From Promethearchaeia archaeon (lineage in GTDB: Archaea > Asgardarchaeota > Lokiarchaeia > Sigyniarchaeales > SOKP01), in contig JAHQWL010000103.1 in NCBI GenBank assembly GCA_029856155.1, forward strand, positions 1-64,000: a stretch of DNA of 64,000 bases, given 5' to 3'. Made by a program: the position numbers and the translations under genes. Of the stretch, positions 39,296 through 64,000 are shown in pieces (the first letter of the stretch is position 1; every line of letters begins with the position of its first letter). The notes under the pieces are model-generated. The model saw only the letters and a program-made list of their open reading frames with translations. It searched no databases and had not been told where the DNA came from.

Positions 39296-39550
39296 ATGAG
39301 AACTATTTTTAATATAGCTCCTAATTATTATTGCCCACGGTGTAAATCAACTGAAATCGTTGATCATGGGGAATATATCGAATGTCCAAAATGTTGTTTG
39401 GATTTTTTTAAGGAACACATTGGAGAAATCAATGTTGAGAATATTTTAGCAGAGCAAGAATTAAATGGGTTTATTAATTCATTTGAGGATCTAAAAGATA
39501 ATAAAATTCGTAAAAATTTTTTAAAATCTTTAAAAGATGATAATTTTTAG
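39296..39550 (+). CDS. Small TFIIB-type Zn-ribbon protein with acidic tail (paralogue of 48049-48273)
   Basis: YYCPRCKSTEIVDHGEYIECPKC...ENILAEQEL. Confidence 0.7.
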   Translation: MRTIFNIAPNYYCPRCKSTEIVDHGEYIECPKCCLDFFKEHIGEINVENILAEQELNGFINSFEDLKDNKIRKNFLKSLKDDNF

Positions 39551-39592
39551 TTAAGAAGTAATTAATGATTTCTCAGATCGTTTAAGCTAATA

Positions 39593-41227
39593 TTACTTCT
39601 TTCCATTTTCCCGTATTATGAATTTTCCATTAACATATAAGCAGGTAAGACGATTTCTAAATATCCAATCACTACCAAATTCATCCCAATATTCCCTAAA
39701 TAGATCATTAGTAAGAAATTTAGACTTTTCTGCCTTTGCGACTTCTAAAACATATTCATCGGCTTTCGTGCCCGCGGGAGATTGTACTACAATTCCATCT
39801 TCAATTAGTCCTTCATAAAGACTTTTATCATCCATTTTATGTTTCGTAGAAGCATCTGCTATCATTGTGGGAGTATATCCCATTGAAAATACTGCTCTGT
39901 GGACTTTAATGATATTCTCAACCTTCAATTCCTGATTTTCATTCTTATCTTGGTACAAGATATTTGCTAAATCAACTATAATCATCTTATTGGGACTTTG
40001 AATAGATGTTTTTTCATCATGATTAAATTTTATGTCTACTACTTCTTTTTTATTAAGTAAATTGTCTAATTCTGAAATTTTTTCTAAGAAATAAGAGTAA
40101 TCTTCAGGAGATAAAGTGATTTTTGAAGTACTACATCGTTCTAAATCGTCTAAACAATTAAAAATCCATTGCTCAAATTTATTCCACTCAGTATTGAAGG
40201 ACGGTATTTCTTCTGATGCGATTTTCTTTGTAGTTTTCTTAATTTCAGATATATTGGGTTTTGATAATGATGGTTTCTGTTTTATATCTAACTTTTTTAA
40301 TATCATTTCAAAGTCTAGTTGGTCTGACTCAGTTAATTGATAATATGATATGTTCATTTGGTTCCATTCATTTATGAAATCCTCTGGAATACCATTTTGC
40401 CAATGATGATTTCGCAAATAGTTATAGAGTTTTTGAGGATTATATAACTCCTCTAATTCTAAATGGGCAGGATTCACTCTTTTGGAGCGAAAATTATGAA
40501 GAAGCTGGACAAACTCTTTTCCAATTTGTCTATTTGTAGTTATTATTATATCATATTCATCTGAAAAATCTTTTAATGCTTGTGGCGGTTTAAATTTTAT
40601 ATTTTTAATATCTGGAAGATTGATATCATAATAGCGACTTGTAAAATCCAAAATTGAATTCCAATATTTTTTATTATACTCACGTAATATATCAGGAAGG
40701 GTTTCCAAATTTCCACTTTGATTTAACTCCTTAAAAATTCTACTAGCAACAATTTTAATTTTCTGAATGTTTTCTTGTAAGAGAGTTTCATCTTGCGATG
40801 TTGAGATAAGATGATTTTCAAATTCTAAATCAGAATCATCAATATCATAATTTAGAAATTGATTATTTTTCTTATTAAAAAAAATAAATCTACTTCCGTT
40901 TGCTAAACTACTAATATTTTCATTTGAGTTAATAACACATCGAATCCCTTCTAAATTCATTAATTCCTTCACTTTATCTCGATCTACATTATATATAAAA
41001 TAGAGTGTGGGATTTTGAGAATAAGAATTGGTTGACTCAAACTCCAGTATTTCTTTAAGGTTATGTAGAGCTGTAGATTCAAGATCAACTATGTTATATC
41101 CTGCGGTAAAAATTTCAAGACCATGAAGATGCTTCATGTCAACATAGGGAAATATCACTAAATTTCTCTGTTGAAAAAAAAGGATATTTAAAAACTCTGG
41201 TCGAATGAAATCTGAGCTTGTATCCAT
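39593..41227 (-). CDS. Protein with C-terminal Zc3h12a/Regnase-like NYN (PIN) ribonuclease domain
   Basis: IIVDLANI...IADAS...PAGTKADEYVL...FLTNDLFREY. Confidence 0.78.
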   Translation of the reverse strand: MDTSSDFIRPEFLNILFFQQRNLVIFPYVDMKHLHGLEIFTAGYNIVDLESTALHNLKEILEFESTNSYSQNPTLYFIYNVDRDKVKELMNLEGIRCVINSNENISSLANGSRFIFFNKKNNQFLNYDIDDSDLEFENHLISTSQDETLLQENIQKIKIVASRIFKELNQSGNLETLPDILREYNKKYWNSILDFTSRYYDINLPDIKNIKFKPPQALKDFSDEYDIIITTNRQIGKEFVQLLHNFRSKRVNPAHLELEELYNPQKLYNYLRNHHWQNGIPEDFINEWNQMNISYYQLTESDQLDFEMILKKLDIKQKPSLSKPNISEIKKTTKKIASEEIPSFNTEWNKFEQWIFNCLDDLERCSTSKITLSPEDYSYFLEKISELDNLLNKKEVVDIKFNHDEKTSIQSPNKMIIVDLANILYQDKNENQELKVENIIKVHRAVFSMGYTPTMIADASTKHKMDDKSLYEGLIEDGIVVQSPAGTKADEYVLEVAKAEKSKFLTNDLFREYWDEFGSDWIFRNRLTCLYVNGKFIIRENGKK

Positions 41228-41249
41228 TCCTTCACCATTAATCAGCTAA

Positions 41250-41912
41250 TTATTCTTTAAAATAGTTAAAAATAACTTGAAGTATTAAATCCTTAAAACA
41301 TTGTACAACATTTTTTCCTTGCAATGCCTCTGCGGGATAAACTATATATGATCCATCTGGATATCTCTCTTGAAGCGGAAGTCCTAAATGAAGTTTGAAA
41401 TCTTTCACTGTGATTGCATCTTTTAAGTCTCGTTTGTTTAACTGAATTAAGTATGGGATTTCTTTTGGTTTAGCAAAACTCACCAGCTCTCGAAAACTTC
41501 TTTTATTTTGTTCTATTTTTTCTGGATCTGAATCTCCAATAAACATAATCCCATCAGCCCCATCCAATACATACTCACGAGTCGAAAGGAATCGTTCTTG
41601 ACCAGTGCACGTGACTACATGGCATATTATATTAAATCTAACATCATGTAGACTGAATTTAAATAATAAATATAGAGAATCTTCCCATAGTGTTCTTCCT
41701 TCAGTAGTTTCAATAGAATACCCGCGAGTTAATTTGAGCAAATCGAACTTTTCACGTAATCGAAAAAAATTTGTTGTTTTTCCACTTTCTCCTGGACCCC
41801 AATATACTATCTTAAACTGAATCATATTCTCAGAATCGTTGAAGTCAAAATCTTCACTTACTTCAACTTTTATCTTATCAAACTTACCTGGATTTCTCTG
41901 TTCTAATTCCAT
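41250..41912 (-). CDS. MglA-family small GTPase
   Basis: KIVYWGPGESGKTTN, GRTL arginine finger, TCTGQ, VLDGADG, NKRDL. Confidence 0.88.
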   Translation of the reverse strand: MELEQRNPGKFDKIKVEVSEDFDFNDSENMIQFKIVYWGPGESGKTTNFFRLREKFDLLKLTRGYSIETTEGRTLWEDSLYLLFKFSLHDVRFNIICHVVTCTGQERFLSTREYVLDGADGIMFIGDSDPEKIEQNKRSFRELVSFAKPKEIPYLIQLNKRDLKDAITVKDFKLHLGLPLQERYPDGSYIVYPAEALQGKNVVQCFKDLILQVIFNYFKE

Positions 41913-41935
41913 TTAATCACCTGAGAGGAGGTAAT

Positions 41936-42484
41936 TTAAGAGATAGATCCAATTTTATCTGAGAATATTTGCTTTTTTAAATCTTTGATATGTTCTTTTA
42001 TTTCCTTCTCTGGCATTCTTAAGACATTCTTCATATGTTCATTTCTTTCAATTTCTTCTCTAATTTTCTGAGCGAATTTGCTCATTTGGAGGATCATCAC
42101 ACCTAAATTTACCTCGTTGTCCGTTAATAGAACAATTAGAATATCTCGTTTTCCCTTCTTTTGAAGTTCAATGTTTCCAATCGATTTTACAAACAATCGC
42201 ATATCGCTATAAATTATAGTCGCACGTTCTAAGGATTCTGTATCAAAAAAATCTTGACCCTGTCTTGCTACACCGTATAAGGCTGCCCCGATTGAACTTA
42301 AGTCCCAATAATTTAATTTTCGATCAAATCGAGAATCTATAGCAACAATTTTTGCATCTTGATCGATTGCAATTAGACCATAAATATATCCCTTCCTTGT
42401 TAGTTTTCCATACTGATATCTTATATCATCCAACACTTCAGTTATCTTGTTTTTATATAAAACTTTTGGTATATGAGTTATCAT
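41936..42484 (-). CDS. Roadblock/LC7 (MglB-like) protein
   Basis: GLIAIDQDAKIVA...LSSIGAALYGVA...NEVNLGVM; directly upstream of the MglA-like gene. Confidence 0.75.
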   Translation of the reverse strand: MITHIPKVLYKNKITEVLDDIRYQYGKLTRKGYIYGLIAIDQDAKIVAIDSRFDRKLNYWDLSSIGAALYGVARQGQDFFDTESLERATIIYSDMRLFVKSIGNIELQKKGKRDILIVLLTDNEVNLGVMILQMSKFAQKIREEIERNEHMKNVLRMPEKEIKEHIKDLKKQIFSDKIGSIS

Positions 42485-42535
42485 CTTAGTTTTCCTATAT
42501 AATATATTTTTATTGTAATGATATATCGTGAGGAA

Positions 42536-42550
42536 TATATAAAGAAAAAA
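42536..42550 (-). promoter_or_regulatory. T-tract/TATA island promoter motif (roadblock-GTPase-RNase operon)
   Basis: TTTTTTCTTTATATA, 52 nt upstream of ATG 42484. Confidence 0.65.
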
Positions 42551-42773: not shown

Positions 42774-43727
42774 TTAATAATTATACAACTCAGTTGACAA
42801 GTATCTTTCCCCAGTATCACATATAATAAATACAATGTTCTGTCCGGCTTCAAATTGTTTTGATACTAAATTTATTGCCGCCCAAGCTATTGCACCCGAG
42901 CTAATTCCTGAAAAAATTCCTTCTAATCTAGCTAAATCTCTTGCTGTTTTAATAGCATCTTCATATTCTACTTGAATAACTTGATCATAAATCTTTGTAT
43001 TAAGAACATCTGGTACAAAACCGGCACCGATTCCTTGAATTTTGTGTGATCCGGGATTTCCCCCTGATAAAACAGGAGAGTCTTTTGGTTCTATAGCGTA
43101 CACCTTCAATTTAGCACCAATTTTTTTTTTTAAAACTTCTCCAACTCCGGTAATAGTTCCTCCTGTACCGACCCCCGCGACAAAAGCATCTACATTCCCA
43201 TCTAGATCATTAATTATCTCAATCGCTGTTGTTTTGCGATGAATTTCTGGATTTGCTAAATTTTTAAACTGTTGGGGAATATATACTTTCCCTTTTTCTT
43301 TGGCGATGTCTTCAGCCTTGACTATTGCACCTTTCATTCCTTCTTCTTTTGGAGTTAAAATTATATCTGCTCCATAAGCTTTTAAAATTTTAACTCGTTC
43401 AATTGATACGCTCTCAGGCATGACAAGAATTAATTTATATCCTTTTGCAGCACAAACTAAAGCCAATCCAATACCAGTATTACCAGAGGTTGGTTCCACA
43501 ATAATTGTTTCGTTATTTATTATCCCCTTTTCCTCTGCTGCTTGAATCATAGCAATTCCAATCCTATCCTTTATACTTCCTCCGGGATTAAAATATTCTA
43601 ATTTAGCATAAAGGTTCGGTTTTGGATTTATATTCTCTACAATTCTATTCAACCTAACTAGAGGCGTTTTACCTATTGTCTCAAGTATGCTGTTATATAT
43701 ATTTGTCATTTTAAATCCCTCCCCCAT
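42774..43727 (-). CDS. cysK: Cysteine synthase A
   Basis: [46 protein letters not shown]; start could be 43709. Confidence 0.95.
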
Positions 43728-44556
43728 GTTTTCCGTAATAAATTTGTATTTCCTCTTGTTTTTTCTTAGTTTTATCTAAGACTCTCACTTCTAATTCTTT
43801 TATTCTTTTATCTAGACTAGAAACTGCAATTGCAATTGGATCTGGTAGATCTCCGTGTCTTAAGTCAATTTTTTCGATTTCTTCTCCTTTTTTAGAAATA
43901 ATTTTACCGGGTACTCCAACCACTACACAATGTGGGGGAACATCTTCTACAATAACTGAATTAGCTCCAACTCTAACATTATCTCCGATTTTGATAGGTC
44001 CTAAGATCTTTGCTCCCGCCCCTATTACCACATTATTACCAATAGTTGGATGTCTTTTCACTTTTTCTAAACTGGTTCCACCCAGCACTACTCCTGAATA
44101 TAAGGTGACATTATTACCGATTTCTGTTGTTTCGCCAATTACAACACCTGATCCATGATCGATAAAAAATTCTGCTCCAATATCAGCACCAGGATGTATT
44201 TCAATTGCAGTTAAATCTCTTGCTATATCCGAAATATATCTAGGGATAAAAGGCATCTTTAATTTCCAAAAGAAATGAGCTATTCTATATAAAAGGACTG
44301 CTTTTACTCCGGGATAACCAGCTAATACTTCAATTAAAGTATTTGCTGCGGGATCTTTATTGAAAGCAGCATTGACATCTGATATAAAAAAATCTAAAAT
44401 TTTTTGTAAATTTCGATCAATTTCTCTATTATCTAAATCTTCAGTCTTAAAATTCAAATTTAATAGACATTCAGTACATTGAGTTTGAATATGTTTAGAT
44501 TTAGGACCTAAGGTTTTACCACAGTTTAAACAACGAATAAATTCATCCATTTCCAT
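43711..44556 (-). CDS. cysE: Serine O-acetyltransferase with N-terminal CxxC...CxxC extension
   Basis: [35 protein letters not shown]. Confidence 0.93.
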
Positions 44557-44739: not shown

Positions 44740-45663
44740 TTAGATAACTTCTAATATTGTTCTTTTCGTAGAACTAAGCTCTTTTTCATTAGAATAAGTA
44801 AATTCTTTTATAATTACATTGGATAATTTGATACTATTACCATCTTCAATCTTTTTAACGCATTCCACAGCTTGCAACCCCCAAATATTAACTCTAATTG
44901 AGCTTGTATCATCACTTAAAATGAGCTTCAATAGAAAAGATTTCTCACCATTCTTTAATGTTAATTCTTTAAATTCTTGAACTTGAACAATACCCTTGAC
45001 AAAACGTATAAAGCCTTCCTTACTATATAATTCCTCTATTGTGAATTTAGAGGGGACTGGTTTAGAAACCCTTTTCTCAATAGACTTGGAGTGATCCACA
45101 TTCTTAACTTCGGGTAAAATTATTCCCTTTGGAGCCAATATTAGCTTTCCTTGCCTACTTAAATGCACTTCTAAATTATCCTTAATTCCTTTTTTAGAAT
45201 AAGCTCCAACAACTTGGATAATCTCTCCTGTCTGAAAAAATTGATTAGAAATAATCTCTGTTTGGTCATTCCACAACACAACCTTAACACAATCAGATTG
45301 ATCACAAATTTGAAATGAGCCAACTGTTCCTGGAGTCCCATCTTTCCTTAAAAATTCTTTTTTCCCCTGAATTTCAGTTATCCTTCCTGCTATGACAATA
45401 TTTCTCATATTTTCAGTAATATTAGAGATAGGTATTGCGAAGTCATTATAATCTATAATATCTTCTGTTATGCGATCTAAAATCTCATTATTTTCTGAAG
45501 AATCAACTTTGACTCCATTCTCTTTTGCGATTAAATATAAGATTGCTTGTTTGTTCATGAAACCTTGGAATTCAGTTTCTTTTTCCTTAACTTGTGCCGT
45601 AAGATCATCCTCACTCATTCCTGCATCCAACAACGCCTGGTAAATTTCTTCAGCTCGTTCCAC
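44740..45663 (-). CDS. RPA/SSB-like protein with two OB folds
   Basis: N-terminal helical domain (LYLIAKENGV); EFLRKDGTPGTVGSFQICDQSDCVKVVLWN; LILSDDTSSIRVNIWG. Confidence 0.85.
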   Translation of the reverse strand: MERAEEIYQALLDAGMSEDDLTAQVKEKETEFQGFMNKQAILYLIAKENGVKVDSSENNEILDRITEDIIDYNDFAIPISNITENMRNIVIAGRITEIQGKKEFLRKDGTPGTVGSFQICDQSDCVKVVLWNDQTEIISNQFFQTGEIIQVVGAYSKKGIKDNLEVHLSRQGKLILAPKGIILPEVKNVDHSKSIEKRVSKPVPSKFTIEELYSKEGFIRFVKGIVQVQEFKELTLKNGEKSFLLKLILSDDTSSIRVNIWGLQAVECVKKIEDGNSIKLSNVIIKEFTYSNEKELSSTKRTILEVI

Positions 45664-45687
45664 TGTATTATTTCACACCTTTCTATT

Positions 45688-45921
45688 TTATTCATATATA
45701 AAAGGAAAATTGCTTTGTCTATCATTCATATTAAATTTTGAAAGATTAACTTGTTCTGGAGTATTTAGAGGATATATTTCAGGATTTATGTTACAATTCC
45801 ATGAATACACGTGTCTATCATTATTAAATACTACACCAAACTCATTAGAGTGATGAATACAAACGGAAAATTTCCTTCTTCCATATGAATTTATACTTCT
45901 AAATTCATGTTCTAATGACAT
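45688..45921 (-). CDS. Small hypothetical protein
   Basis: 77 aa; GTGA SD-like element; preceded by an exact island promoter motif. Confidence 0.45.
   Translation of the reverse strand: MSLEHEFRSINSYGRRKFSVCIHHSNEFGVVFNNDRHVYSWNCNINPEIYPLNTPEQVNLSKFNMNDRQSNFPFIYE
45695..45709 (-). promoter_or_regulatory. Variant island promoter motif (RPA)
   Basis: TTTTCCTTTTATATA, 32 nt upstream of the GTG. Confidence 0.45.
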
Positions 45922-46010: not shown

Positions 46011-46619
46011 TTACTCTGATAAACTTTTGATAAATTTAGAAGTCAAACCAATTTTGTTACGAGTTCTGTGAAATGCATAAGCAGAGCAACTACATAATGC
46101 TCTTAAATTTGACTGAATTATTTTTTGAGGTTCACTTTTAGCAATCAAATCAGTTATAAATATAACAATTGTTAATTGAGTCATTAATTGCGGCCAAAAA
46201 AATAAGGTATCTAACTTGTCTTTTAATCTTCGAGCATTTTCTTTTGCTCGTTTGTAATCGAACACTGGAGCTAGCCGGTAAAATCTATGTAAAATAATGT
46301 TAATAATTTGGTTTTGGTCTCTAGCATGGAGCACCTTTGGATTGTTATTGATAAATTTTCTGAAATTTAGCAAACCAATTAAAAATTCACTGATAAACTT
46401 ATGAACAAGTTTAACTGGAATGTTTAAGGCTTCACTTATGCGCTTATTTTCGGAAGTTGTTATGACTCTTACCTTTTCTCTAATTGTTAAAAAAGAAATA
46501 TTTCGAAACAAGTAATTTAATATAATTGGTTTTAATTTATTCTGAGACTTATAAAAGTTATTATAATAATCATTTATACTGTCTAATTCGAAGCTTTCCT
46601 TTTTTAATGTCTGAGTCAT
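46011..46619 (-). CDS. Helical protein, possible TFB-like cyclin/HTH protein without a Zn ribbon
   Basis: KRISEALNIPVKLVHKF and IVIFITD...IIQSNLRALCSCSAYAFHRTRNKI resemble TFB cyclin-repeat HTH ends. Confidence 0.5.
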   Translation of the reverse strand: MTQTLKKESFELDSINDYYNNFYKSQNKLKPIILNYLFRNISFLTIREKVRVITTSENKRISEALNIPVKLVHKFISEFLIGLLNFRKFINNNPKVLHARDQNQIINIILHRFYRLAPVFDYKRAKENARRLKDKLDTLFFWPQLMTQLTIVIFITDLIAKSEPQKIIQSNLRALCSCSAYAFHRTRNKIGLTSKFIKSLSE

Positions 46620-46725: not shown

Positions 46726-47820
46726 TTAGAGAAGATTATCTAATGTAATTTGGAATTTTCGCGGTTTTTGTCTCTGATGAATAAAAAATTCTCTAGAAGC
46801 AGTATAATTTTTTTCAAAGATATCCAGGTTTTTCTCAACACGTTCTTTATTGAGATAATGTTCTTCACATAATAAAGATAATACTCTTGTTTTATTTGCT
46901 GGATTCCAAAATATATTGTCAATTTGTTCATTTATATGAGGAAACAAAAATATTTTTCTCACTTTTTTTATTATATCAGGATTTAACTCACCAAAATCGT
47001 AATTATTATATTCTTTTAGAATAAGGGTCTCAATGGATTTGTATTTTCGAATAAGTTGTAATGCTTTTTTTGATCCAATACCATCAATCCCTGGAAAATA
47101 ATCTATACCAACTAATATCCCAATATCAATGAGTTGAAAAATTGAAATCCCTAAATTCTTTAAATTCTTCTGTAAATCAATTGAGACTGGTTGTATCTTT
47201 TTGTATCTCCATTTTCCCTGAATTTTCCTCTTTAACGATTTCGAGAGATTTTGAATAACATAAGGGCATCCAAATAAGAGTGAATCGAAATCTTGGGAAT
47301 TTGAGAAATTTGCGATTTTTTGTTTTACTAAGAATGCACATTGAGATTCTGCTGAAGCGGGAGAATCTATAAAAGGAATACCCAAAGCTCCCAGAAGTTG
47401 TTTTGATTCTTCTATTATATTCTGCCACATATATTCTTTACTTAAGGCAATTTTTCTTGCTAAATCTCTGTTGTGCTGACTTATAGCTTCCTTATACCAT
47501 TTTCGAATAAAAATGAAATCTTTTAACTGATCTTTTGTTATCACTTTTTTCAGTTCAGAAACTTTTCCATCAAAACAAAAAATAGGAAATATTCTCTTAC
47601 TATAATAAAAATTCACTCGATACAATAAACCATATAAGTGTGATATTGGTCTCTGCGTTCTGTCTAAAATCAATCCCGCGTCAGTTCCATCTGAGTCTTT
47701 GCGAGCAAAGGTGAATAGCCCCATTATAATATTCGGAGCATCAATCGCTATAATTTTACCCTTTAAGTCTTGATATTCAAGTTGCTTTCGAACTATAATG
47801 TTTTGAAGTTTAACTCCCAT
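46726..47820 (-). CDS. fen: Divergent flap endonuclease-1 (FEN1/XPG family) paralogue
   Basis: MGVKL, IAIDA, SHLYGLLYR, FDG, SQDFDSLLFG, VGIDY.PGIDGIG; C-terminal PIP-like QITLDNLL. Confidence 0.88.
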   Translation of the reverse strand: MGVKLQNIIVRKQLEYQDLKGKIIAIDAPNIIMGLFTFARKDSDGTDAGLILDRTQRPISHLYGLLYRVNFYYSKRIFPIFCFDGKVSELKKVITKDQLKDFIFIRKWYKEAISQHNRDLARKIALSKEYMWQNIIEESKQLLGALGIPFIDSPASAESQCAFLVKQKIANFSNSQDFDSLLFGCPYVIQNLSKSLKRKIQGKWRYKKIQPVSIDLQKNLKNLGISIFQLIDIGILVGIDYFPGIDGIGSKKALQLIRKYKSIETLILKEYNNYDFGELNPDIIKKVRKIFLFPHINEQIDNIFWNPANKTRVLSLLCEEHYLNKERVEKNLDIFEKNYTASREFFIHQRQKPRKFQITLDNLL

Positions 47821-51115: not shown

Positions 51116-51125
51116 ACTTAGATAA

Positions 51126-54976: not shown

Positions 54977-55363
54977 TTATTCAAGTAAAATTCTCAGACC
55001 TTGAACAAACTGCTTAGGGGTAATACCATTTAATAAAGCTTGATGCATATATTTGATGTGTAGCTCTTCAACATTTTCTTTATTTTCAACTTTAGAAGCT
55101 ATTTGTTTTAGTAGATTATATAGTGAGAAATCTGAATTTTCTAACATACCAAAATACCCTCCATATGCCAGGAACATGTTAGCCATAAGCTCAAGATCCT
55201 CTTGTGAGTTTTTTTTATAGCATTGCTCACAGACAACTCCGAATGTAAGACCTTCTTGATATATTGACGCTCCTCGCTTAAGATTGTTTCTGCAAATCCC
55301 ACATCTTACTGCTTCTTGAGTAAGATGGGGTGTTGGTTCCGTACTTAGGGAATTTATTTCCAT
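54977..55363 (-). CDS. Zn-finger (CxxC...CxxC) protein
   Basis: CGIC...CEQC; motif ATTTTTCTTTAAATA at 55385-55399, 22 nt upstream. Confidence 0.7.
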   Translation of the reverse strand: MEINSLSTEPTPHLTQEAVRCGICRNNLKRGASIYQEGLTFGVVCEQCYKKNSQEDLELMANMFLAYGGYFGMLENSDFSLYNLLKQIASKVENKENVEELHIKYMHQALLNGITPKQFVQGLRILLE

Positions 55364-55406
55364 GAAGTATCTATATAACCAGAGTATTTAAAGAAAAATT
55401 AATGGA

Positions 55407-56114
55407 TCAACAGAGGGATAAGCCATTATTACCTATTAAGAATTGAAAATTCCACTTTAATCGATTGAATGAAATGAACATATTTTTTTTTTCACTATTA
55501 CAAACATTGCTTAAGACAACATCTATTGTTTCTAATCTATCGTATAATTTATAAAAGAAAGGCCTAACTCTTTCTTGGCTAGGACTATAAGTAACTTCAT
55601 GAATCAAAACCAATACAATATCATTTCGTTTACAAAACAATATTAATGGTAATAATTGTGTTTCATAAAAGCTATCTAGTAATACTAGGCAATTCAAATT
55701 AGTGAATTGAGTAATTTCAAATCGTAAATGGTGAGAGATATTATCAATAACGATACATTTTAAGTCTGGAGGAAGAACTGTAGAGGGTGATGTAATTTTT
55801 TGTAGTATTGAAGATTGTTCTAAATATGTAGGAATAGGATTATCTTGAGGGATAATAAACACATTCTCCGTAATATAATCCAATTTCTCAGGATAATCAG
55901 CTAAAATTTGTCTTAATCGCTTTACAGGGAAAGCTTCATTTGCTTGAACCCAGATACATGATTCTTTATAAGGTTCTTCTGATGTTAAAAGATTCCCAAC
56001 TAATTGAAGGGCAAGAGTAGTTTTACCAGTACCAGACTTTCCAGAGATAGATAGTATATTATTATGAGATAGTAATTCCTTAATCCCTATGAAAAATCTT
56101 ATTTCTGAGAGCAT
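55407..56114 (-). CDS. RadB/Rad51-paralogue-like RecA-fold ATPase
   Basis: Walker A GKSGTGKT, FPVKRL, Walker B CIVIDN; no N-terminal domain. Confidence 0.78.
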   Translation of the reverse strand: MLSEIRFFIGIKELLSHNNILSISGKSGTGKTTLALQLVGNLLTSEEPYKESCIWVQANEAFPVKRLRQILADYPEKLDYITENVFIIPQDNPIPTYLEQSSILQKITSPSTVLPPDLKCIVIDNISHHLRFEITQFTNLNCLVLLDSFYETQLLPLILFCKRNDIVLVLIHEVTYSPSQERVRPFFYKLYDRLETIDVVLSNVCNSEKKNMFISFNRLKWNFQFLIGNNGLSLC

Positions 56115-56115
56115 C

Positions 56116-56460
56116 TTAGTTTTCTTCTAGTAATTCAAGCACTTCTTGTTTTATCTTATCTATTTGCTTATCCTTTTCTGCTTTTTCATCATTTCTGTTT
56201 GTATTATCATTATTTTGAGAAGAATTATTCATTAATTGCTGGATTACCATCAAAGTAATTAAATCATCCATTCTACTGCCTTGCTGAGCATTTTTTCCAC
56301 TAAAGAATCCAAAAACTCCATTATTTGACCCTGAAGATCTGGATTTAAAAAATAAATATACTCCAATAAACAACACTATGAAGATAATAGAATAAACTGG
56401 ATTTTGCTGGTAAAAGATAAAAAATCCTAAAATCAATACGATATAACAGAATCCTTTCAC
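56116..56460 (-). CDS. Membrane protein (two N-terminal TMs, cytoplasmic coiled tail)
   Basis: Tightly packed between the peptidase and RadB-like genes. Confidence 0.7.
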   Translation of the reverse strand: MKGFCYIVLILGFFIFYQQNPVYSIIFIVLFIGVYLFFKSRSSGSNNGVFGFFSGKNAQQGSRMDDLITLMVIQQLMNNSSQNNDNTNRNDEKAEKDKQIDKIKQEVLELLEEN

Positions 56461-56467
56461 TTTTTAA

Positions 56468-57208
56468 TCACCATTCGGTATGTGGTTTTTTTGGTTTATA
56501 ATGTTTACGAGTAAAAGGTTTCATTCTGACCTTTGGGGGTTTTTTATAATCTCTCGAATGTAATATATCCAAAGTTTTGTGTATGCCAATAAAACTGAAT
56601 TTCAATAATAAGTAAAGTCCGGCAATTGCTAAATAATAAAAGACATCTAATAAGAAGTAAATCTGAAAGGTTGCTAAGATCAGCCATAAGATTATTGTTG
56701 AAAGGATAACAAGAAATATCTGATACCATGAATGTGTAGAGTCATCCCTGAATGCTCTCGAAATCATTCTAAAATCTCCTGAAGATGGTGCTGCCGTCAA
56801 AAGTAATGAAAAAGAAATAAATCCCGCAAAAACTCTAATAATTGGTAGAAATTGGGGATTGAATACCACTCCAAACCACAAATAAAAAATAAGCCATGTA
56901 CTTAAATATAGGGGAGCGAAACTTATTAGAAATGTCTGTAGAAAACTTAGAGGTTTTCCAGGTTTAACTAATCCACGCGGATTTCTAGATCCATCTTTTT
57001 CATTATGCCACTTGATCTCGATACGATCGGGAACATGTCCAACTACCAAGCTCATGAAATAATGACAGAATTCATGAAAAATAACTCCTATAAAAAATAA
57101 ACGTATAGTAATGGATTTAAATAGACCTGCGTTGTCACTCAATAAAAAACGTGATACAATAAGAGATATAATTAAGATGCCAAGGAATACTAAAGGTTCT
57201 TCAATCAT
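56468..57208 (-). CDS. Membrane zinc metalloprotease (M50B/DUF3267-like)
   Basis: FHEFCH (HExxH), ISFAPL, APSSGD; likely ATG 57208, 22 nt from motif TTTTTCCTTTAAATT (57230-57244). Confidence 0.75.
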   Translation of the reverse strand: MIEEPLVFLGILIISLIVSRFLLSDNAGLFKSITIRLFFIGVIFHEFCHYFMSLVVGHVPDRIEIKWHNEKDGSRNPRGLVKPGKPLSFLQTFLISFAPLYLSTWLIFYLWFGVVFNPQFLPIIRVFAGFISFSLLLTAAPSSGDFRMISRAFRDDSTHSWYQIFLVILSTIILWLILATFQIYFLLDVFYYLAIAGLYLLLKFSFIGIHKTLDILHSRDYKKPPKVRMKPFTRKHYKPKKPHTEW

Positions 57209-57598
57209 GCAATAATATAGTACCAAAGTAATTTAAAGGAAAAATCCAATCTTTTTGTTAAATTTTTGTTTTTTTTTGGGGTGATCTTGGATATTATATT
57301 TCTGAAGCGGGAGAATTCTAATAACAAGGGTTTCATATTTTAATGACAGTGTATGTAAAATGCAAAACGAATTAATGAGCTATATTAAGCTTGAATGGAG
57401 AATTGTCTATAGAGATTGTTCCCCCATGAAATCTGGTCAATTATTGGCGAGATAATTAAGAATCGCAACCTCTAGTTATATTGACAAAAATGTCAGTGAT
57501 CGATAAAATGCAAATTTTCTAGAAATTTTTGTGAACAGTTGAAAACCACCTCTCAAAATTTAAGAGAAGAAGCCTTCTTTTCACCGTTCAATTTTTGA

Positions 57599-57613
57599 GG
57601 AAAAGGTTTAAAA
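57599..57613 (+). promoter_or_regulatory. Canonical purine-rich BRE + TATA upstream of the tfb paralogue
   Basis: GGAAAAGGTTTAAAA, ~45 nt upstream of GTG 57658. Confidence 0.55.
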
Positions 57614-57657
57614 TCAAAACTCCTACCTTATATTCTTTAGTAAAATAAAAAAAAATA

Positions 57658-58911
57658 GTGATCAAAACATTGGCAACGTATAAAACACTACAAGAAAGTA
57701 GACTTTCTCCTGATTTGGCACACTTATCTTGCGATATTTGTGGTTCTGCTGATATTTTAGAAACTAGAGAGGGGTATGTGTGTAAAAAATGTGGTGTAGT
57801 ATTAGAAATCCAGAAATTGCAATATGATAGACCTTATAATGAAGACATAATCCAATATGCAAAGGGCGTAGGCACAACTCAAATAGGAACAAGGCGAGAA
57901 AGGGCGATCTCGCCTCTTTCTATTAAATTGCAAAGAATAAACAAATACAATTCTATAACCACCACTGAACGAGCTGTAATTGAGAAAGCTCGGATTGAAA
58001 TTGCGAGAATCTTTAATTATTTAGGTTTAGATGGTGGATATGATGCTATAAAAGAAATGGTATTATCCAAGTTCAAAAGCCTTAGAGCTCACATTAGGTC
58101 AGGTTCAAAATATAGAAGTGTAGAGAAGTTAGTTTCAATCACAATTTATTTCTGTCTTAAACTTAGGAATGTTTCTATTAATCCATATGAGTTGATTGAA
58201 ATATCGAAAATTACAAAAAAGGAGTTCAATGATTTCAACTTACAACTTCAAAGATTTTTACCCCATTATGCCGAACGTAATAGGCAGAAATATATTCTAC
58301 AGAGGATTTTTGAACTTTCTGAACATTTTGATTTAGGAATGCCTTTTTATTATCTTTCTAAAAAGATTTTATATAGATTGTGGCATGGAATCAAAAATAC
58401 GACAGATAATGTAGTAGCAGGATTAATCAGTTCTATTTCAGTTTTATGTTCATGCAAAGATAAGGTAAGTATAAGTTCTATTTGTAATCGTTTAGGAATC
58501 AGAATGAGTACAATTCAATCTCAGGTCAAGAAAAGGATCTTTGAAAGGTTTCAAGGTGAAGGATTTATCAGTCTAATAAAATCGTCTGATATTTTAGTAC
58601 GATTAATGAAAAGGTTAGGACTTTTGGGAGAACAAGCAATCGAAACTCAAGAAGAGACTTGCATATCTGATAAGGAAGAGATTATAATGGGTAATGCTGC
58701 CAATATATTTAACGGTCATGATAATTTTGACTATTATTATTACGCGATGAGGGGAGAAAACAAAAAACCCTTAATCGTCACTTTAAAAATTAATGAATTT
58801 CCTTTGATGTTTAAATCTGAAAAAAAGTCGAAAATGAAACCCGATTATTTACTTAATTTTGAAATATTTCATTATTATTGTTCAAAAGATCCTCCTAAAA
58901 TAGGTACTTGA
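57658..58911 (+). CDS. tfb: Divergent transcription factor B (TFB/TFIIB) paralogue
   Basis: Zn ribbon CDICGS...GYVCKKCGVVL; cyclin repeat 1 (RSVEKLVSITIYFCLK...ELIEISKITKKEF); cyclin repeat 2 with HTH SISSICNRLGIRMSTIQ; ~100-aa C-terminal extension. Confidence 0.8.
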   Translation: MIKTLATYKTLQESRLSPDLAHLSCDICGSADILETREGYVCKKCGVVLEIQKLQYDRPYNEDIIQYAKGVGTTQIGTRRERAISPLSIKLQRINKYNSITTTERAVIEKARIEIARIFNYLGLDGGYDAIKEMVLSKFKSLRAHIRSGSKYRSVEKLVSITIYFCLKLRNVSINPYELIEISKITKKEFNDFNLQLQRFLPHYAERNRQKYILQRIFELSEHFDLGMPFYYLSKKILYRLWHGIKNTTDNVVAGLISSISVLCSCKDKVSISSICNRLGIRMSTIQSQVKKRIFERFQGEGFISLIKSSDILVRLMKRLGLLGEQAIETQEETCISDKEEIIMGNAANIFNGHDNFDYYYYAMRGENKKPLIVTLKINEFPLMFKSEKKSKMKPDYLLNFEIFHYYCSKDPPKIGT

Positions 58912-59032: not shown

Positions 59033-59389
59033 TTACTTATCCTGGTGTTTCTTTTTACTTTCTACTAAAATTTCTTCTATCATGGTTTTTAAATTAGGAA
59101 TACTATTTTTGATTGTTGTCCAAACTAACTTATAATCAATACCAAAATATGAATGAATTAATCTATCTCTCATTCCTGCCATTTCTTTCCAAGGAATTTT
59201 GGGATATTTTGTCCTTGTATCATCAGTAATATTTTTTGTAGCTTCTCCAAGTATTTCAAACTTCCTAATAACTGCACTTGAAGTTTTATCATCTTCTTGA
59301 AATTCTTCGAATGTCATGTTTTCAACGAACTCTATAATTTTATTAATAGATTCAATGATATCTTTTAAATATATATTTTGATTTCTCAT
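59033..59389 (-). CDS. HEPN (DUF86, HepT-like) toxin
   Basis: IPWKEMAGMRDRLIHSYF (RxxxxH). Confidence 0.92.
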   Translation of the reverse strand: MRNQNIYLKDIIESINKIIEFVENMTFEEFQEDDKTSSAVIRKFEILGEATKNITDDTRTKYPKIPWKEMAGMRDRLIHSYFGIDYKLVWTTIKNSIPNLKTMIEEILVESKKKHQDK

Positions 59390-59688
59390 GAATAGATTAC
59401 CGTTTTTAAAATCGAATCTTTTAATTCTTCCCTTAATGCATTTATTGGTACAACATCCACTTTACATCTAAATTTTTCCTCAAGAAATAGAGAAAGCCCA
59501 ATGAAATCAAATAGATCTGCATCTTCTCCAAATTCAACAAGTAAATCGATATCACTAATATCCTTATGTGTTTCACTCGCATAGGATCCAAATAAACCTA
59601 ATTCTTTGACTTTATACTTATCTTTTAATATTTTTTTCAGATTAGTAAGTGTCTTAAGAATCTCTTTTTTGCTTAGCATCTTTAACAA
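59386..59688 (-). CDS. Minimal nucleotidyltransferase (MntA-like) antitoxin
   Basis: LFGSYA...SDIDLLV...KVDVV; ATGA overlap with the toxin gene. Confidence 0.92.
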   Translation of the reverse strand: MLKMLSKKEILKTLTNLKKILKDKYKVKELGLFGSYASETHKDISDIDLLVEFGEDADLFDFIGLSLFLEEKFRCKVDVVPINALREELKDSILKTVIYS

Positions 59689-59902: not shown

Positions 59903-59917
59903 TTTTTTGTTTAAATA
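59903..59917 (+). promoter_or_regulatory. Island promoter motif in a divergent region
   Basis: TTTTTTGTTTAAATA, identical to 46669-46683; 55 nt upstream of ATG 59972. Confidence 0.62.
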
Positions 59918-59971
59918 AGTTCGCTATAATTCTAACAGTAACCTCTTATAACTTATGTAGAATCGAAGAAA

Positions 59972-62950
59972 ATGAATAATAAAAAAGTCCTTTTTGTGAG
60001 TATTATAGTTGTTTTGATGTTAAGCATTAGTATATTTCACTCCGATATTTCTAAGAGTTTCACTCTAGCAAGTGAAAATTTTGCATATGGCGAAATAGAG
60101 TATCCAGAATTAGCTTCTTCAAGCAATAATGAAATCATCAATTCTATTTTTGATGCAAGAGTATCTGACTATTCTGATTTGGGGTATTTCCCTCAGATCT
60201 ATGAACCTTCAATACAAGCAACCTATTATGCCCTCTTCATTTTTGATGCGATTGGAAAACTGAACCACATAAATCAATCTGAAATAATCAATTACATTAT
60301 GTCTCAATATGATGGAAGTTCAAACAGATTTATGGATACATTAGCATATCGATATTTAGATACTGACTTCTCCAAAACGTATTTTCCCTTAAATTCTATT
60401 TTAGAAGTTAATTGTTATGCTATTCTTTCTTTAAATATATTAAATCGCACAGACTTATTTAATACGCAAGGAATGATCGATTTCATTTGGGATTGTTATA
60501 ATCCAGAAACAAGTGGCTTTATTGGACAGCCTTACAGTGCAGAATTAGAGGAGGGATTTAGAGTTTCAACAGCAGATAATACATTTTTTGCGGTATTTAC
60601 ACTCAACTTATTGATGGATAATTGGGTGGGGTACTCCTCTAAAATACAAGATATAATTCAATATATAAATAATTTACAATATCCTGGAGGATTAGGTTGG
60701 ATGGGAGGGGGATTTCGAAATGATGATAATACTTTTGTTGATACTTTGAATCCCTTTTTTGAGCCCAATCTAATTTCTTCTTATTACTGCATAAAAGCAT
60801 TAGAGATATTTGGTATGGAAGAATCTATAAATATTGTTGATTTTCACCAATTTCTTGATTATCTGTATGATTCAAATTCTAACTATTTTCGAATATCTGA
60901 GTGGGATTACGGTGTGAATTATACTAACGTAGTTGCAACCGCTCTTGGATTAGAACTTTCAGATATCACTAGCTATGGAAATATCGATAGAGATGATGCA
61001 ATTGCGTTTATTATGGGGAATCGGAATTCTTTTGGAAATTGGGATGAGTCCACCATAGTTAAAATTCATGAATTAATTGATACCTTTCAAATTATCCGAT
61101 CTCTGAGAAATAGTAATGAAACCTCTCAGTTCTCATTGGAAGCAAAAAATCAAATAGGAAACTCAACCTTAAGTTACTCTTCTTATGAAGTGTATTCTCT
61201 GCTTTCAGATGATTACACTTCTATGAGTTATTTGCACACGATAATTTCTTCATTTTCATTATTTGATCGTATTTCAGATTTAGAGATTCAAGAGCTTTAT
61301 ACGCGTATTAAAAATTCTTATATTGATTTTGCTGATTTTGGGATAAGTCGATATTTTTATGGTTATCTCTTAGATGAAACTGAGATACTTTGGTTCCGAT
61401 CTCATCCAATTGAATATTATACTTCAGGCCATAAAAATTACCTTAAAGATATTTCTCAGCTGAATTCTCATAAATCCACATATTTCGCACTAGAGTCTTT
61501 GCAAAAGCTCTTTAAGTTGGATGATTTTGCTACAGAATTTGATCTTATGAGTTTAGTAAACGATATCGTTGATACTCAATTTTTAAATGATACGTATTAC
61601 GAAAATTATGGGGGTTTTTCACCGATTTTAAAGTATGATGTTGACCGATCAGAGTACCTCAATACGATGATTTATTGCGAATATACTTATTATGCTTTAA
61701 GATGTTTAGAGATCCTTTCTAATTATCTGACTCTTAATATTACCGATTTAGGATTCGATATTACAGCATTATATACATATCTTAATAGAAATACTATCGA
61801 GAATACTGAAACTCTTTACTTCAATCCAAGTTATACATCAGATGTTGAGACTATCTTACAAAATACCTATTACATGATCTATATTATGAAAATGTTGAAT
61901 TTATATGACAAAAATACTGAAAAAATCGAAAATTACGTAGAAAATAACCTCAACTACAATAATATTAAGAATATTTATTATAGCTATAAGATCTCAGAAA
62001 TATTAGGCTTGGATATTAGTTTTGATATTAGCTTAACTCAAGATTTAATACAAAGCATCTATTCTGAAGAAAGAGAAGAATTTTACTTAACACCTGATAA
62101 AATAAAAATAGAATTAGACACTTTTTTATGGATCTCTGAGATGGCGAGGAATAGTCAAATTGGAATTAATGCTCAATATTGTAGTCAAGTTCCATTAGGG
62201 GGAGTTAACCACATGGAAGTCTCGCTGTCTAATCTTATTGTGAGAGATTTTGGTTCATATATTTCCTTTAAATTTGAAAGTGACCAAATAGGGACTATTA
62301 ATTTTAATAAACTAGAAAATAATATTTATGTAGCAGATGTACCAATTCCAATGAATTCTGAAAATTATCCTATAGTTGCAGGAGTATTGTATGCCTATGA
62401 AGGAGCACGGGTAAAAGCCGAGTATAACGTCATTTTTAATACCATATATTCTTTAGCCTATAATCTTAATATATCAAAAACTGCGTCTAAAGTAAAATTT
62501 GAAGTAAATGGTTCAATATTAGCCAATGAAAATGAATACGCCTTAATTAATGGAAGTGTTTATACTGTGATCTACAAAGATGACATAATAATTGCCACAC
62601 AAAATTTCGGGCATATTAATCTCAATGAATCGAGTATATTTATTCTTGAATATATACCAATAGAAAATGGTTCTTACTATTTTGAGATTTACCTTGAAGA
62701 TGGATTTCAAGAATCGGAAGTCGAAATCGGAAACACATTATTCATCAAAAACGTCGATAACCCCCATGATCCCGATGACCCTGATGATCCCGACGATCCT
62801 ATTAATTCACACCAAAATTATGAAGAGAGCATTAAAACAGCAATCCCTCTCATGATTGCTTTTATAGGAGTACCTGGATGTGTTATCGCGATATCCTCTA
62901 AACAACTTGGTAAGGTTAAAAAACGACCAGAATACAACAATTCAAAGTAA
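59972..62950 (+). CDS. Large surface protein with prenyltransferase/squalene-cyclase-like alpha/alpha repeats and C-terminal TM anchor
   Basis: Signal peptide; repeated TYYAL..L, GGF, SGF motifs; DPHDPDDPDDPDDP linker; C-terminal TM plus basic tail. Confidence 0.8.
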   Translation: MNNKKVLFVSIIVVLMLSISIFHSDISKSFTLASENFAYGEIEYPELASSSNNEIINSIFDARVSDYSDLGYFPQIYEPSIQATYYALFIFDAIGKLNHINQSEIINYIMSQYDGSSNRFMDTLAYRYLDTDFSKTYFPLNSILEVNCYAILSLNILNRTDLFNTQGMIDFIWDCYNPETSGFIGQPYSAELEEGFRVSTADNTFFAVFTLNLLMDNWVGYSSKIQDIIQYINNLQYPGGLGWMGGGFRNDDNTFVDTLNPFFEPNLISSYYCIKALEIFGMEESINIVDFHQFLDYLYDSNSNYFRISEWDYGVNYTNVVATALGLELSDITSYGNIDRDDAIAFIMGNRNSFGNWDESTIVKIHELIDTFQIIRSLRNSNETSQFSLEAKNQIGNSTLSYSSYEVYSLLSDDYTSMSYLHTIISSFSLFDRISDLEIQELYTRIKNSYIDFADFGISRYFYGYLLDETEILWFRSHPIEYYTSGHKNYLKDISQLNSHKSTYFALESLQKLFKLDDFATEFDLMSLVNDIVDTQFLNDTYYENYGGFSPILKYDVDRSEYLNTMIYCEYTYYALRCLEILSNYLTLNITDLGFDITALYTYLNRNTIENTETLYFNPSYTSDVETILQNTYYMIYIMKMLNLYDKNTEKIENYVENNLNYNNIKNIYYSYKISEILGLDISFDISLTQDLIQSIYSEEREEFYLTPDKIKIELDTFLWISEMARNSQIGINAQYCSQVPLGGVNHMEVSLSNLIVRDFGSYISFKFESDQIGTINFNKLENNIYVADVPIPMNSENYPIVAGVLYAYEGARVKAEYNVIFNTIYSLAYNLNISKTASKVKFEVNGSILANENEYALINGSVYTVIYKDDIIIATQNFGHINLNESSIFILEYIPIENGSYYFEIYLEDGFQESEVEIGNTLFIKNVDNPHDPDDPDDPDDPINSHQNYEESIKTAIPLMIAFIGVPGCVIAISSKQLGKVKKRPEYNNSK
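62761..62800 (+). repeat. 9-bp-period coding repeat (Pro-Asp-Asp linker)
   Basis: ccccatgat cccgatgac cctgatgat cccgacgat cct. Confidence 0.7.
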
Positions 62951-63004
62951 GAATAACAAATTCTAAATTTTTTCTTTTTATTTTATCATTTTATTCTTCT
63001 GTTA

Positions 63005-63607
63005 ATGACTTCAGATATGGATTCCTACGACAATAAAATATCACATCGGAATACAATTCACTTAATCACCCAAATTTTGGATATTTTGGGAAAATATAGT
63101 GATAATTATGAGAAAAAGTTAAATTTTACTAGATTAATGCAACACCTAAAAATCCCAACTTCTGAGATTGACGAATTTGTTTCTTTAATATTACATTTTC
63201 AAGAAACATTCGAACATGTCTTTAAGGAATATCGAATAAAGAAAAAAAGACAAAATAGCCAAGTATTTCTAACCGTAGAAAACAAAATCAAAGATAAAAC
63301 ACCAAGAATAATTAAGATTTTGTCTTCTCATTTAAATCTTTTTAATGACATTGTCTATACATTCAAATTTGTAAAGAGGGGAAAAGGTTTTGATACTTCT
63401 AAGAACGATTCAGAATTATTGACAAATCTAAAAGAGTTAAAAATTAAACATCCTTATCTTTTTGATCCACATGAAAATGGAGTTATTTATCCATCAGAAT
63501 TAGGGCTCAAGTTTGGGGAACTCATCATTTCATATAACAAAAGTAATAGAAAAATTAAAAATATGCAAATCGAAAATTATACGTTTATTGTGGAGGATGA
63601 TGGGTGA
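63005..63607 (+). CDS. Hypothetical protein (possible winged helix), coupled to hef
   Basis: 200 aa; overlaps the hef start; motif-like TTTTTTCTTTTTATT at 62968-62982. Confidence 0.6.
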   Translation: MTSDMDSYDNKISHRNTIHLITQILDILGKYSDNYEKKLNFTRLMQHLKIPTSEIDEFVSLILHFQETFEHVFKEYRIKKKRQNSQVFLTVENKIKDKTPRIIKILSSHLNLFNDIVYTFKFVKRGKGFDTSKNDSELLTNLKELKIKHPYLFDPHENGVIYPSELGLKFGELIISYNKSNRKIKNMQIENYTFIVEDDG

Positions 63608-64000
63608 AATAAAAGAAGTAACAAATGAGACATCAAATCTTAATTCTAATGAACTTCAAATACGAGATTATCAAATAAATATCGCAGATAATTGTGTGAA
63701 AAAAAATTCGTTAGTAGTATTGCCAACTGGACTTGGAAAAACTATAATTGCAGTGTTAGTGGCAAATAAAATATTGAACATTTTTCCTCCTCATAGCAAA
63801 ATAATAGTGCTCGCTCCTACACGGCCTTTAATAAATCAACATTATGAGACATTTTTGCGATTCTTAAATATCCCGAAAGAAAAATTTGCAATTTTAACAG
63901 GGAAGATTCTTCCTGAAAAGAGAATAGCTAGTTTTAATGACCATGAGATTCTATTTTATACTCCTCAGACATTACGAAATGATTTAGTTCAAAAAAAATA
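63600..64000 (+). CDS. hef: Hef/FANCM (ERCC4-related) SF2 helicase, partial (runs off window)
   Basis: Read manually: GGAGG SD, MGEIKE...IRDYQINI...NSLVVLPTGLGKT...LAPTRPLINQH...TPQTLRNDL. Confidence 0.9.
   Translation, partial: MGEIKEVTNETSNLNSNELQIRDYQINIADNCVKKNSLVVLPTGLGKTIIAVLVANKILNIFPPHSKIIVLAPTRPLINQHYETFLRFLNIPKEKFAILTGKILPEKRIASFNDHEILFYTPQTLRNDLVQKK

Follow-up and report, generated by a model that had tools for sequence, protein, structure and literature searches.

A second, divergent recombination and repair gene set behind a rare promoter sequence in a Lokiarchaeial genus

Introduction

The DNA analysed here, referred to as the window, covers the first 64 kb of contig C103 (71.7 kb; JAHQWL010000103.1) in assembly GCA_029856155.1 of a Promethearchaeia archaeon of the Sigyniarchaeales, a genome of 4.1 Mb in 104 contigs with about 30% G+C, labelled G000. 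This DNA occurs at marine-sediment and salt-marsh sites, and no RNA run was found to contain it. An island that starts at about 42.5 kb and reaches the contig end, at 71.7 kb, combines RadA-, FEN1-, Hef-, RPA- and Hel308-like genes with a divergent TFB of 417 amino acids (aa), named dTFB. This Lokiarchaeial genus has a second, divergent recombination and repair gene set, most of which stands behind one rare promoter sequence, termed T6C-TATA. Gene content was identified with Pfam and NCBIfam profile searches, and the island was compared with 31 genomes, i.e., 18 from other species of the same genus and 13 from other genera of the order. These searches confirmed the RadA, FEN1, RPA, Hef, small GTPase, NYN RNase, HepT/MNT and cysE/cysK genes, most of which a first-pass annotation had recognised from the letters alone. 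Within the literature searched, no paper describing the island was found.

Gene content of the locus

The island copy of the RadA family, named RadA3, is a protein of 409 aa encoded at 51608..52837 on the minus strand, with Pfam matches to Rad51 (residues 76-312) and HHH_5 (351-401) and with an N-terminal helix-hairpin-helix (HhH) as well as an extra C-terminal one. Its T6C-TATA promoter lies at 52896..52909 on the same strand, 58 nt before the ATG. RadA3 scored 325 bits against NCBIfam NF003301, passing the cut-off of 259, and 289 bits against TIGR02236, failing the cut-off of 361; in the PDB, it matched P. furiosus RadA with 214 bits and Rad51 with about 210 bits. The second HhH follows an acidic linker at the C-terminus, an architecture not seen in the solved RadA/Rad51/Dmc1 chains matched. 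The other two RadA copies of G000, 38-40% identical by tblastn, reached 456/434 and 435/415 bits, above the equivalog cut-offs. These two types occur in all 31 genomes and RadA3 in 11 of the 18 of the genus; it was not found in the other seven, among which are a complete genome and G010, which holds just a short fragment.

Most of the other recombination genes are extra copies as well. The FEN1-like nuclease (46726..47820, minus strand; Pfam XPG_I/XPG_N), with motifs at 47847-47860 and 47997-48010, scored 273 bits against fen_arch, under the cut-off of 352, whereas the copy on contig C1 reached 423 bits, so that the island protein is a divergent FEN1-family nuclease. At 44740..45921 on the minus strand, a 77-aa gene with a motif at 45978-45991 precedes a divergent RPA-like protein with Pfam OB folds, which scored 95 bits against NCBIfam replication factor A, far under the cut-offs; other RPA genes lie elsewhere in the genome (tblastn). 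This RPA-like gene is present in the islands of G000, G005 and G003 only, and is missing from those of G016 and G002. At the right-hand end of the window (62969..64000, plus strand), a motif at 62969-62982 precedes a 200-aa gene, a Hef-like helicase that runs past the window end (63597-65753; NCBIfam Hef) and a 158-aa Zn-ribbon protein. The Hef-like protein scored 568 bits against a cut-off of 610 and covers profile positions 6-565 of 781, which is the SF2 helicase part alone; no C-terminal ERCC4/XPF nuclease match was obtained in Pfam or NCBIfam. The Hef copy on contig C4 has the nuclease and reached 798 bits, and two other Hef-like genes occur in G000 (tblastn).

Beyond the window, a Hel308-type helicase is encoded at 67854-70385 of contig C103 on the minus strand, in an open frame of 843 aa with a Walker A motif. 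As this frame contains no ATG before residue ~148, a non-ATG start is needed. An N-terminal truncation was considered and rejected, the 843-aa frame including an intact Walker A. The island gene scores higher for Hel308 than any other in the genome (298 vs 196 bits), encodes the most conserved island protein, and may be the main, or even the only true, copy of the organism rather than a spare. Upstream of it lies an 88-aa CxxC gene, with the motif on its promoter in G016 and G003 and a variant in G000, and the two genes probably form an operon.

Divergently from dtfb, a minus-strand operon (55407..57247) with a variant motif at 57228-57247 encodes a 246-aa HExxH protein with five transmembrane (TM) segments, a 114-aa TM protein and a 235-aa RecA/RadB-like ATPase. 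The latter is a P-loop ATPase with weak matches to Pfam AAA_22/KaiC, and its Atlas language-model features fall in Rad51/RecA clusters (0.95-0.98), which makes a RadB-like identity only a lead. The RadA, FEN1, Hef and RPA of the island are extra, more divergent copies. Whether the genes are second copies had been left open at first, and the answer is that they mostly are: better-scoring RadA (two), FEN1, Hef and RPA genes were found elsewhere in the genome, with Hel308 as a possible exception. A role of the set in recombination and fork repair is suggested by the family membership of these divergent paralogues.

Promoter analysis

The promoter sequence is made of six T and a C or G that directly abut an 8-bp TATA box, i.e., TTTTTT(C/G)TTTAAATA or TTTTTT(C/G)TTTATATA, with no spacer in between. 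About 16 of the roughly 27 transcription units of the island carry it; the earlier description of a motif shared by almost all units was thus somewhat generous as to its extent, but the motif itself is real. Indeed, the pattern TTTTTSTTTWWAWA has 91 matches on both strands of the 4.1-Mb genome, 12 of which fall in the last 29.7 kb of the contig, the portion used for motif density, against 0.66 expected (Poisson 8e-12). With promoter position defined as a sense-oriented match at most 160 nt upstream of a called gene, the motif was found there for 10 of 31 island genes and for 14 of 3294 genes elsewhere in the genome (Fisher 2e-15), the non-island matches being scattered and chiefly intragenic. 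The units without the motif are cysE-cysK, HepT/MNT, dtfb, a putative profilin and a few small open reading frames (ORFs), in agreement with the first reading for cysE/cysK, the profilin and the tfb gene.

A logo of 83 sites from seven genomes has T at positions -7 to -2, C (77%) or G at -1 and TTTAWATA from 0 to 7. Position +29, which lies outside the matrix that found the sites, is A in 83% of them, with pyrimidines before it; this conserved A, about 22 nt past the TATA box, fits the initiator expected in archaea. The distance from the TATA end to the start codon is either 21-26 nt, in leaderless or almost leaderless genes, or 42-58 nt, in which case a GGAG-type ribosome site is present. Upstream of RadA3, in 11 genomes whose proteins are 76-100% identical, the motif is fixed 58 nt from the ATG and forms the best-conserved block, while its flanks have diverged.

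Such a promoter could simply be generic or strong, and the genes ordinary housekeeping copies. In this respect, TTTAAATA is also the commonest TATA box, being the most frequent upstream 8-mer genome-wide. However, 459 generic TTTAWATA boxes from upstream regions display no base preference across the preceding 14 positions and no T-run, and the strict motif occurs at just 14 of 3294 other genes; on these two grounds, the generic-promoter explanation was rejected. Together with the better-scoring RadA, FEN1, Hef and RPA copies elsewhere and the seven of the 18 genus genomes in which RadA3 was not found, this leaves it scarcely any probability, and a distinct promoter class is retained here.

Outside the island, strict motifs in the right position were observed at C64:3825-5180, C83:15301-20680, C94:12683 and C97:34092, before small proteins of unknown function; these promoters are possible outlying members of the regulon. 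Within the island, an exact orphan copy at 54953-54966 (minus strand), not seen at the equivalent place in G005, does not lead directly into an ORF. Instead, a GC-rich hairpin (AUCACCUC...GGGGGUGAU) and then a U-run come after it (54855-54966, minus strand), and it could give a small RNA of ~80-90 nt; a 33-aa TM peptide ORF lies beyond the hairpin, at ~54777. Rfam searches of the window and the contig end gave no match to any known RNA family, this hairpin included.

A divergent TFB and its control region

dTFB is encoded at 57658..58911 on the plus strand with a GTG start, and consists of a Zn ribbon followed by a pair of cyclin repeats and, at the C-terminus, a beta-rich extension of about 100 aa. 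In Pfam, it matched just Zn_Ribbon_TF with 24 bits, under the cut-off of 29, and did not match the TFIIB model PF00382, which recovers some ten canonical TFB genes in the rest of G000 and none on contig C103. More than 340 homologues have the same length. The Zn-ribbon cysteines C25/C28/C42/C45 are invariant in 25 homologues, and this region aligns to the canonical TFB ribbon. When a profile of these 25 homologues was compared by hhalign with the canonical TFBs of G000, residues 25-291, from the ribbon through both cyclin repeats, were aligned (97%, E 8e-11). This is in line with the AF2 model of dTFB, whose core has a pLDDT of ~80 and whose top Foldseek matches in the PDB were all TFIIB/TFB/Brf, including Pyrococcus woesei TFBc (1ais_B, TMt 0.75, rmsd 3.3; 1d3u_B, TMt 0.72; rmsd range 3.3-3.8 Å). 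dTFB hence belongs to the TFB/TFIIB family, though it is extremely divergent, and the divergent TFB noted in the first-pass annotation is real.

In structures of TFB-TBP-DNA complexes, the last helix of cyclin repeat 2 contacts the B-recognition element (BRE). All 9-11 canonical TFBs of G000 keep VTEVT(L/I)R(S/N)R at this place, whereas dTFB has the fold with other residues, RMSTIQSQ instead of TEVTxRxR. Its recognition helix reads LGIRMSTIQSQVKK, and IRMSTIQSQV is almost invariant in the family. The changed helix is taken as a sign of altered specificity, not of non-membership in the TFB family. A solo dTFB relative was observed at G018:C9:66298-67482, 40% identical and with the helix GMSTIHAQV, and may represent a second specialised TFB lineage. 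The canonical TFB genes of G000 lie on contigs C1, C14, C26, C34, C59, C71, C72, C75, C84 and C88 and fall into two sequence classes, with CPECGG-type and CC..CLNCG-type Zn ribbons. With three TBP genes, on C28, C71 and C88, the TFB/TBP repertoire of G000 is large for an archaeon outside the haloarchaea.

The control region of dtfb (57483..57640, plus strand) is of another kind than that of its neighbours. It comprises a palindrome, GACAAAAATGTC, at 57483-57494, an imperfect palindrome, GAGAAGAAGCCTTCTTTTC, at 57564-57582, and a BRE with TATA, GAAAAGGTTTAAAA, at 57600-57613, i.e., a purine-rich BRE plus TTTAAAA with no T6C motif. Both palindromes and the BRE/TATA are kept in six genomes, in which the dTFB proteins are 45-83% identical. 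The palindromic blocks are candidate operator sites for a regulator that would switch the whole set, and their conservation beside a canonical promoter fits a factor whose own gene responds to a specific regulator and is transcribed by means of a housekeeping TFB.

Other genes of the island

A minus-strand operon at 39593..42549 encodes a 182-aa protein, put down at first as a putative MglB, a small GTPase (Pfam Arf/Ras) and an NYN RNase (RNase_Zc3h12a), with gene gaps of 22-23 nt. Its motif, at 42536-42549, also immediately precedes the orthologue in G006, G013 and G003. Two Zn-ribbon proteins, of 84 aa (39296..39550, plus strand, no clear motif) and 74 aa (48049..48368, minus strand, coding part 48049-48273, motif 48355-48368), are paralogues with 43% identity. 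They had been proposed as stand-alone TFB-type ribbons; their likeness to a TFB ribbon is weak (hhalign to the dTFB ribbon 50%, E 1.7e-4). A 202-aa protein with a C-terminal TFIIB-like cyclin box is encoded at 46011..46619 (minus strand) with motifs at 46669-46682 and 46710-46723, and a 128-aa Zn-finger protein lies within 54953..55398 (minus strand) behind a leaderless-spaced motif at 55385-55398.

The region 48469..50675 contains a 105-aa gene with three TM segments (plus strand, motif 48469-48482), a 72-aa gene for a hairpin of two TM segments (minus strand, motif 49207-49220) and, on the plus strand behind a motif at 49238-49251, a 105-aa triple-CxxC protein followed by a 363-aa doubly anchored protein; none of these four small or membrane genes, the 363-aa one included, gave a family match. 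A 992-aa surface protein anchored by a TM segment at both ends (59904..62950, plus strand, motif 59904-59917) resembles a prenyltransferase-like alpha/alpha toroid in Pfam. As regards the membrane and surface proteins proposed at first, the HExxH in the five-TM protein, the 72-aa hairpin and the two doubly anchored proteins (992 and 363 aa) were found, but no family membership emerged. The suggested link to cell contact and DNA import found no support, nor did induction by DNA damage, and the pilin-like protein is just a two-TM hairpin. No Pfam or NCBIfam match to CedA/CedB, Ted, HerA/VirB4-like proteins or a pilus or secretion ATPase was obtained among the island proteins, among which small membrane proteins of unknown family remain. 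A defence island was also considered and rejected: PADLOC gave generic helicase/P-loop likeness only, with HamB at 88 bits vs 298 bits for Hel308.

Two minus-strand units stand outside the regulon. Both cysE-cysK (42774..44556), missing from the islands of G016 and G002, and the HepT/MNT toxin-antitoxin pair (59033..59688), missing from the islands of relatives, have no motif; as they are absent from other islands, they are later insertions. The far side of the island, beyond the contig end of G000, was observed at G005:C5:21500-35500, and no orthologues were found in the G000 assembly. Its large, conserved proteins of unknown family, of 1275, 692 (HhH), 641 (DUF998), 401, 381, 289 and 219 aa, several of them under the motif, are also kept in G006 and G003; the 1275-aa protein had no Pfam match.

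Conservation and dispersal

Gene order and the motif before orthologues are kept in G005, G016 and G002, with island proteins 37-97% identical, and across seven of the genus genomes the motif precedes the orthologues. The motif-bearing stretch measures ~40 kb in G005 and ~36 kb in G016, and the left-hand chromosomal flank is common to G000, G005 and G016. The set occupies at least four separate loci in G006, a complete genome, and two in G003, with the motif still before the same genes everywhere; the motif also follows dispersed genes in G004 and G013, the latter with island fragments at a contig end. In G006, a minimal module unites dTFB with the 246-aa and 992-aa genes that flank it, each of which bears a motif, and the 992-aa gene adjoins dTFB and keeps its motif in both G006 and G003. 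That the motif has stayed with the genes through this dispersal speaks for a regulon bound by a trans-acting factor, and not merely for a contiguous imported block. Hence, the cluster and its motif are kept across the genus, as the first-pass annotation had suggested to verify; what was found for the gene copies, the motif and the synteny is that the island does not hold the sole housekeeping copies, that the motif is enriched and that the cluster is conserved.

dTFB was found in 14 of the 18 genus genomes and in none of the 13 from other genera of the order. The apparent absence of dTFB from G004 is explained by a contig break within the neighbouring 992-aa gene, and G008 is seemingly without most of the set. 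In the other genera, G025, G029 and G030 have an older cluster with a RadA3-like gene (48-58% identical) and various FEN1-, Hel308- and Hef-like, ATPase and 182-aa/GTPase genes, in which no clear T6C-TATA motif was seen; a scan of five genomes of other genera (G019, G024, G026, G029 and G030) likewise showed no clusters of the motif. According to this distribution, the target genes predate the genus, and the special promoter and dTFB show up jointly within it.

The variable gene content raises the question of whether the island is the relic of a plasmid or virus, or a domesticated one, with its own TFB and uniform promoters, instead of a stress or recombination programme of the host. Asgard viruses and mobile genetic elements (MGEs) targeted by CRISPR carry genes for PCNA, for TFB homologues and for multiple Zn-finger proteins, as in the extrachromosomal or viral genomes WyrdV1, 10H_0 and 7H_42 (bioRxiv 10.1101/2021.07.29.453957). 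The Loki island resembles these in that a TFB homologue is encoded beside numerous small Zn-finger proteins and genes for replication or repair; it also has many small ORFans and a toxin-antitoxin pair, uniform promoters are typical of viruses, and dTFB is present in three copies in G001 and two in G018. The extra copies of G001 (460 contigs, 9% contamination) may, however, stem from mixed strains. Unlike the viral and MGE sets, the Loki set has a fixed chromosomal context, with the same flanks in G000, G005 and G016, and no integrase-, capsid-, terminase- or replication-initiator-type domain was found among the proteins scanned, many ORFans being unassigned. Besides, no tRNA was found, PHROG gave no matches except weak P-loop ones for the 235-aa ATPase, and no dTFB relative was found in IMG/VR. 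The location of the genes at four or more loci of the complete G006, each with the motif, and the older core cluster in other genera also speak against a mobile element, which is regarded as an unlikely origin. The regulon would instead be a chromosomal, partly dispensable one of a single Lokiarchaeial genus.

Discussion

The favoured interpretation, to which we give somewhat better than even chances, is that a dedicated, divergent TFB reads the T6C element in the BRE position and drives a regulon of recombination genes. It retains the regulon first proposed in so far as a distinct, conserved promoter class exists and a divergent TFB without the motif lies amid the set; the reading of the motif by this TFB is deduced from their co-occurrence and from the altered helix. 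In such a scheme, an unknown signal would act through the conserved palindromes upstream of dtfb, whose ordinary purine-BRE/TATA promoter would be readable by housekeeping TFB, and dTFB would accumulate. Together with TBP, and by means of the changed helix-turn-helix of cyclin repeat 2 (RMSTIQSQ for TEVTxRxR), it would then bind T6C-TATA promoters, in which the T6-(C/G) element would occupy the BRE position and which ordinary TFBs would use poorly. RNA polymerase would be recruited to ~16-20 units and would start transcription from the conserved A 22 nt past the TATA box. The products would include a toolkit of RadA3, the RadB-like ATPase, the FEN1-like nuclease, a nuclease-less Hef, Hel308 and, in some genomes, the RPA-like protein, along with small Zn-ribbon proteins, the cyclin-box protein, the GTPase/NYN-RNase operon and membrane or surface proteins. 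According to this scheme, the gene set would be inducible.

Several observations weigh against a regulon read by dTFB. The whole-genome motif count in G000 is not above that of a reversed-pattern control (48 vs 51), and relatives vary; because whole-genome counts are uninformative, the signal lies in promoter position and clustering. The co-occurrence of dTFB and the motif is effectively one evolutionary event and is suggestive, not a statistical proof. Nearly all island dTFB copies keep STIQSQV, so that no covariation between helix and motif is available. RadA3 is present on a small contig of G009, where no dTFB was found, in an assembly that is 94% complete and fragmented. Around the solo dTFB copy of G018:C9, no island genes or motif occur within 16-23 kb on either side. 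Finally, the three TBP paralogues, several Zn-ribbon proteins and the cyclin-box protein could be, or share in, the specificity factor.

This last point leads to the most serious competitor, in which the T6C element is read by another factor (a Zn-ribbon or cyclin-box protein, an alternative TBP or an Orc1/Cdc6-type protein), dTFB being a mere member of the set or a TFB3-like co-activator. The conserved set indeed has several small Zn-ribbon proteins and a cyclin-box protein, and the genome has three TBP paralogues. There are also precedents in the Sulfolobales: Orc1-2 rather than a TFB binds the 5'-ANTTTC-3' element of the damage-response promoters (PMC6061795), and TFB3, which has a Zn ribbon and coiled coil only, works with TFB1 without reading DNA itself (PMC6101594). 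However, the T6C element abuts the TATA box without a spacer, exactly at the TFB contact site, whereas the ANTTTC element does not abut the upstream side of the TATA box (PMC6061795); dTFB, unlike TFB3, keeps both cyclin repeats with a conserved, altered DNA-reading helix, and is not truncated in the TFB3 manner. In G006, moreover, the minimal module places dTFB beside motif-bearing neighbours. A different reader of the motif thus retains a minor but real share of the probability, of the order of one chance in a few, and recognition by dTFB is the reading pursued below.

The two systems are otherwise alike in that a TFB paralogue is tied to a discrete DNA-damage or recombination gene set with a T-rich target element, its own gene being separately regulated. 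The targets of TFB3 are Ups pili and Ced import, in contrast, and neither was found in the island; there is no sign of common descent between dTFB and TFB3. Closer in architecture is TFB2 of Sulfolobus acidocaldarius, whose promoters have a TFB1-like BRE and TATA and differ mainly in spacing (bioRxiv 10.64898/2026.09.06.749720). Like dTFB, it is a full-length TFB paralogue with a defined regulon; TFB2 occupies its promoters and its abundance is regulated. Unlike in the TFB2 system, the sequence at the BRE position is quite different in the Loki set, and dtfb is without the motif whereas TFB2 activates its own gene, its targets being division genes.

Expanded TFB/TBP families of haloarchaea, such as TFBa-g of Halobacterium, were reportedly the subject of work by Turkarslan and colleagues in 2011. 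There too, paralogues of general factors partition promoters into overlapping regulons, which has the same analogy to sigma factors. The haloarchaeal TFBs are canonical, with overlapping regulons and subtle promoter differences, whereas dTFB is missed by the Pfam TFIIB model and the promoter class that goes with it is sharp and limited to ~20 units. In bacteria, alternative sigma factors serve competence or SOS-like programmes (e.g., ComX/SigH). The logic is the same, a discrete regulon for DNA metabolism having its own initiation factor and its own core-promoter element, but the proteins and the promoter architecture are unrelated, and the likeness is one of analogy only.

Alternative general transcription factor regulons are hence a kind already known; what is unusual here is the clean cis/trans signature and the cargo. 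The promoter specificities of the known archaeal alternative general factors are subtle or indirect, and a very divergent TFB, a sharply different element at the BRE position and a compact, conserved regulon offer a clear instance, open to experiment, of promoters partitioned in a sigma-like way, in an archaeon whose transcription system resembles that of eukaryotes. A stronger version, in which the TFB with the rewritten helix reads a T6C 'anti-BRE' ignored by housekeeping TFBs and controls facultative recombination machinery and surface proteins as an orthogonal factor-promoter pair, is put forward tentatively and is a bet we would not yet make. If true, it would be the first clear sigma-factor-like core-promoter switch in archaea, and the 15-nt motif and dTFB offer a ready-made orthogonal promoter/factor pair to try in archaeal genetics. 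For the biology of the Asgard archaea, a separately controlled set of RadA/Rad51-family, FEN1, Hef and Hel308 proteins bears on the origin of specialised recombination programmes, and is relevant to paralogue sets such as Rad51/Dmc1, in which duplication would be followed by regulatory separation.

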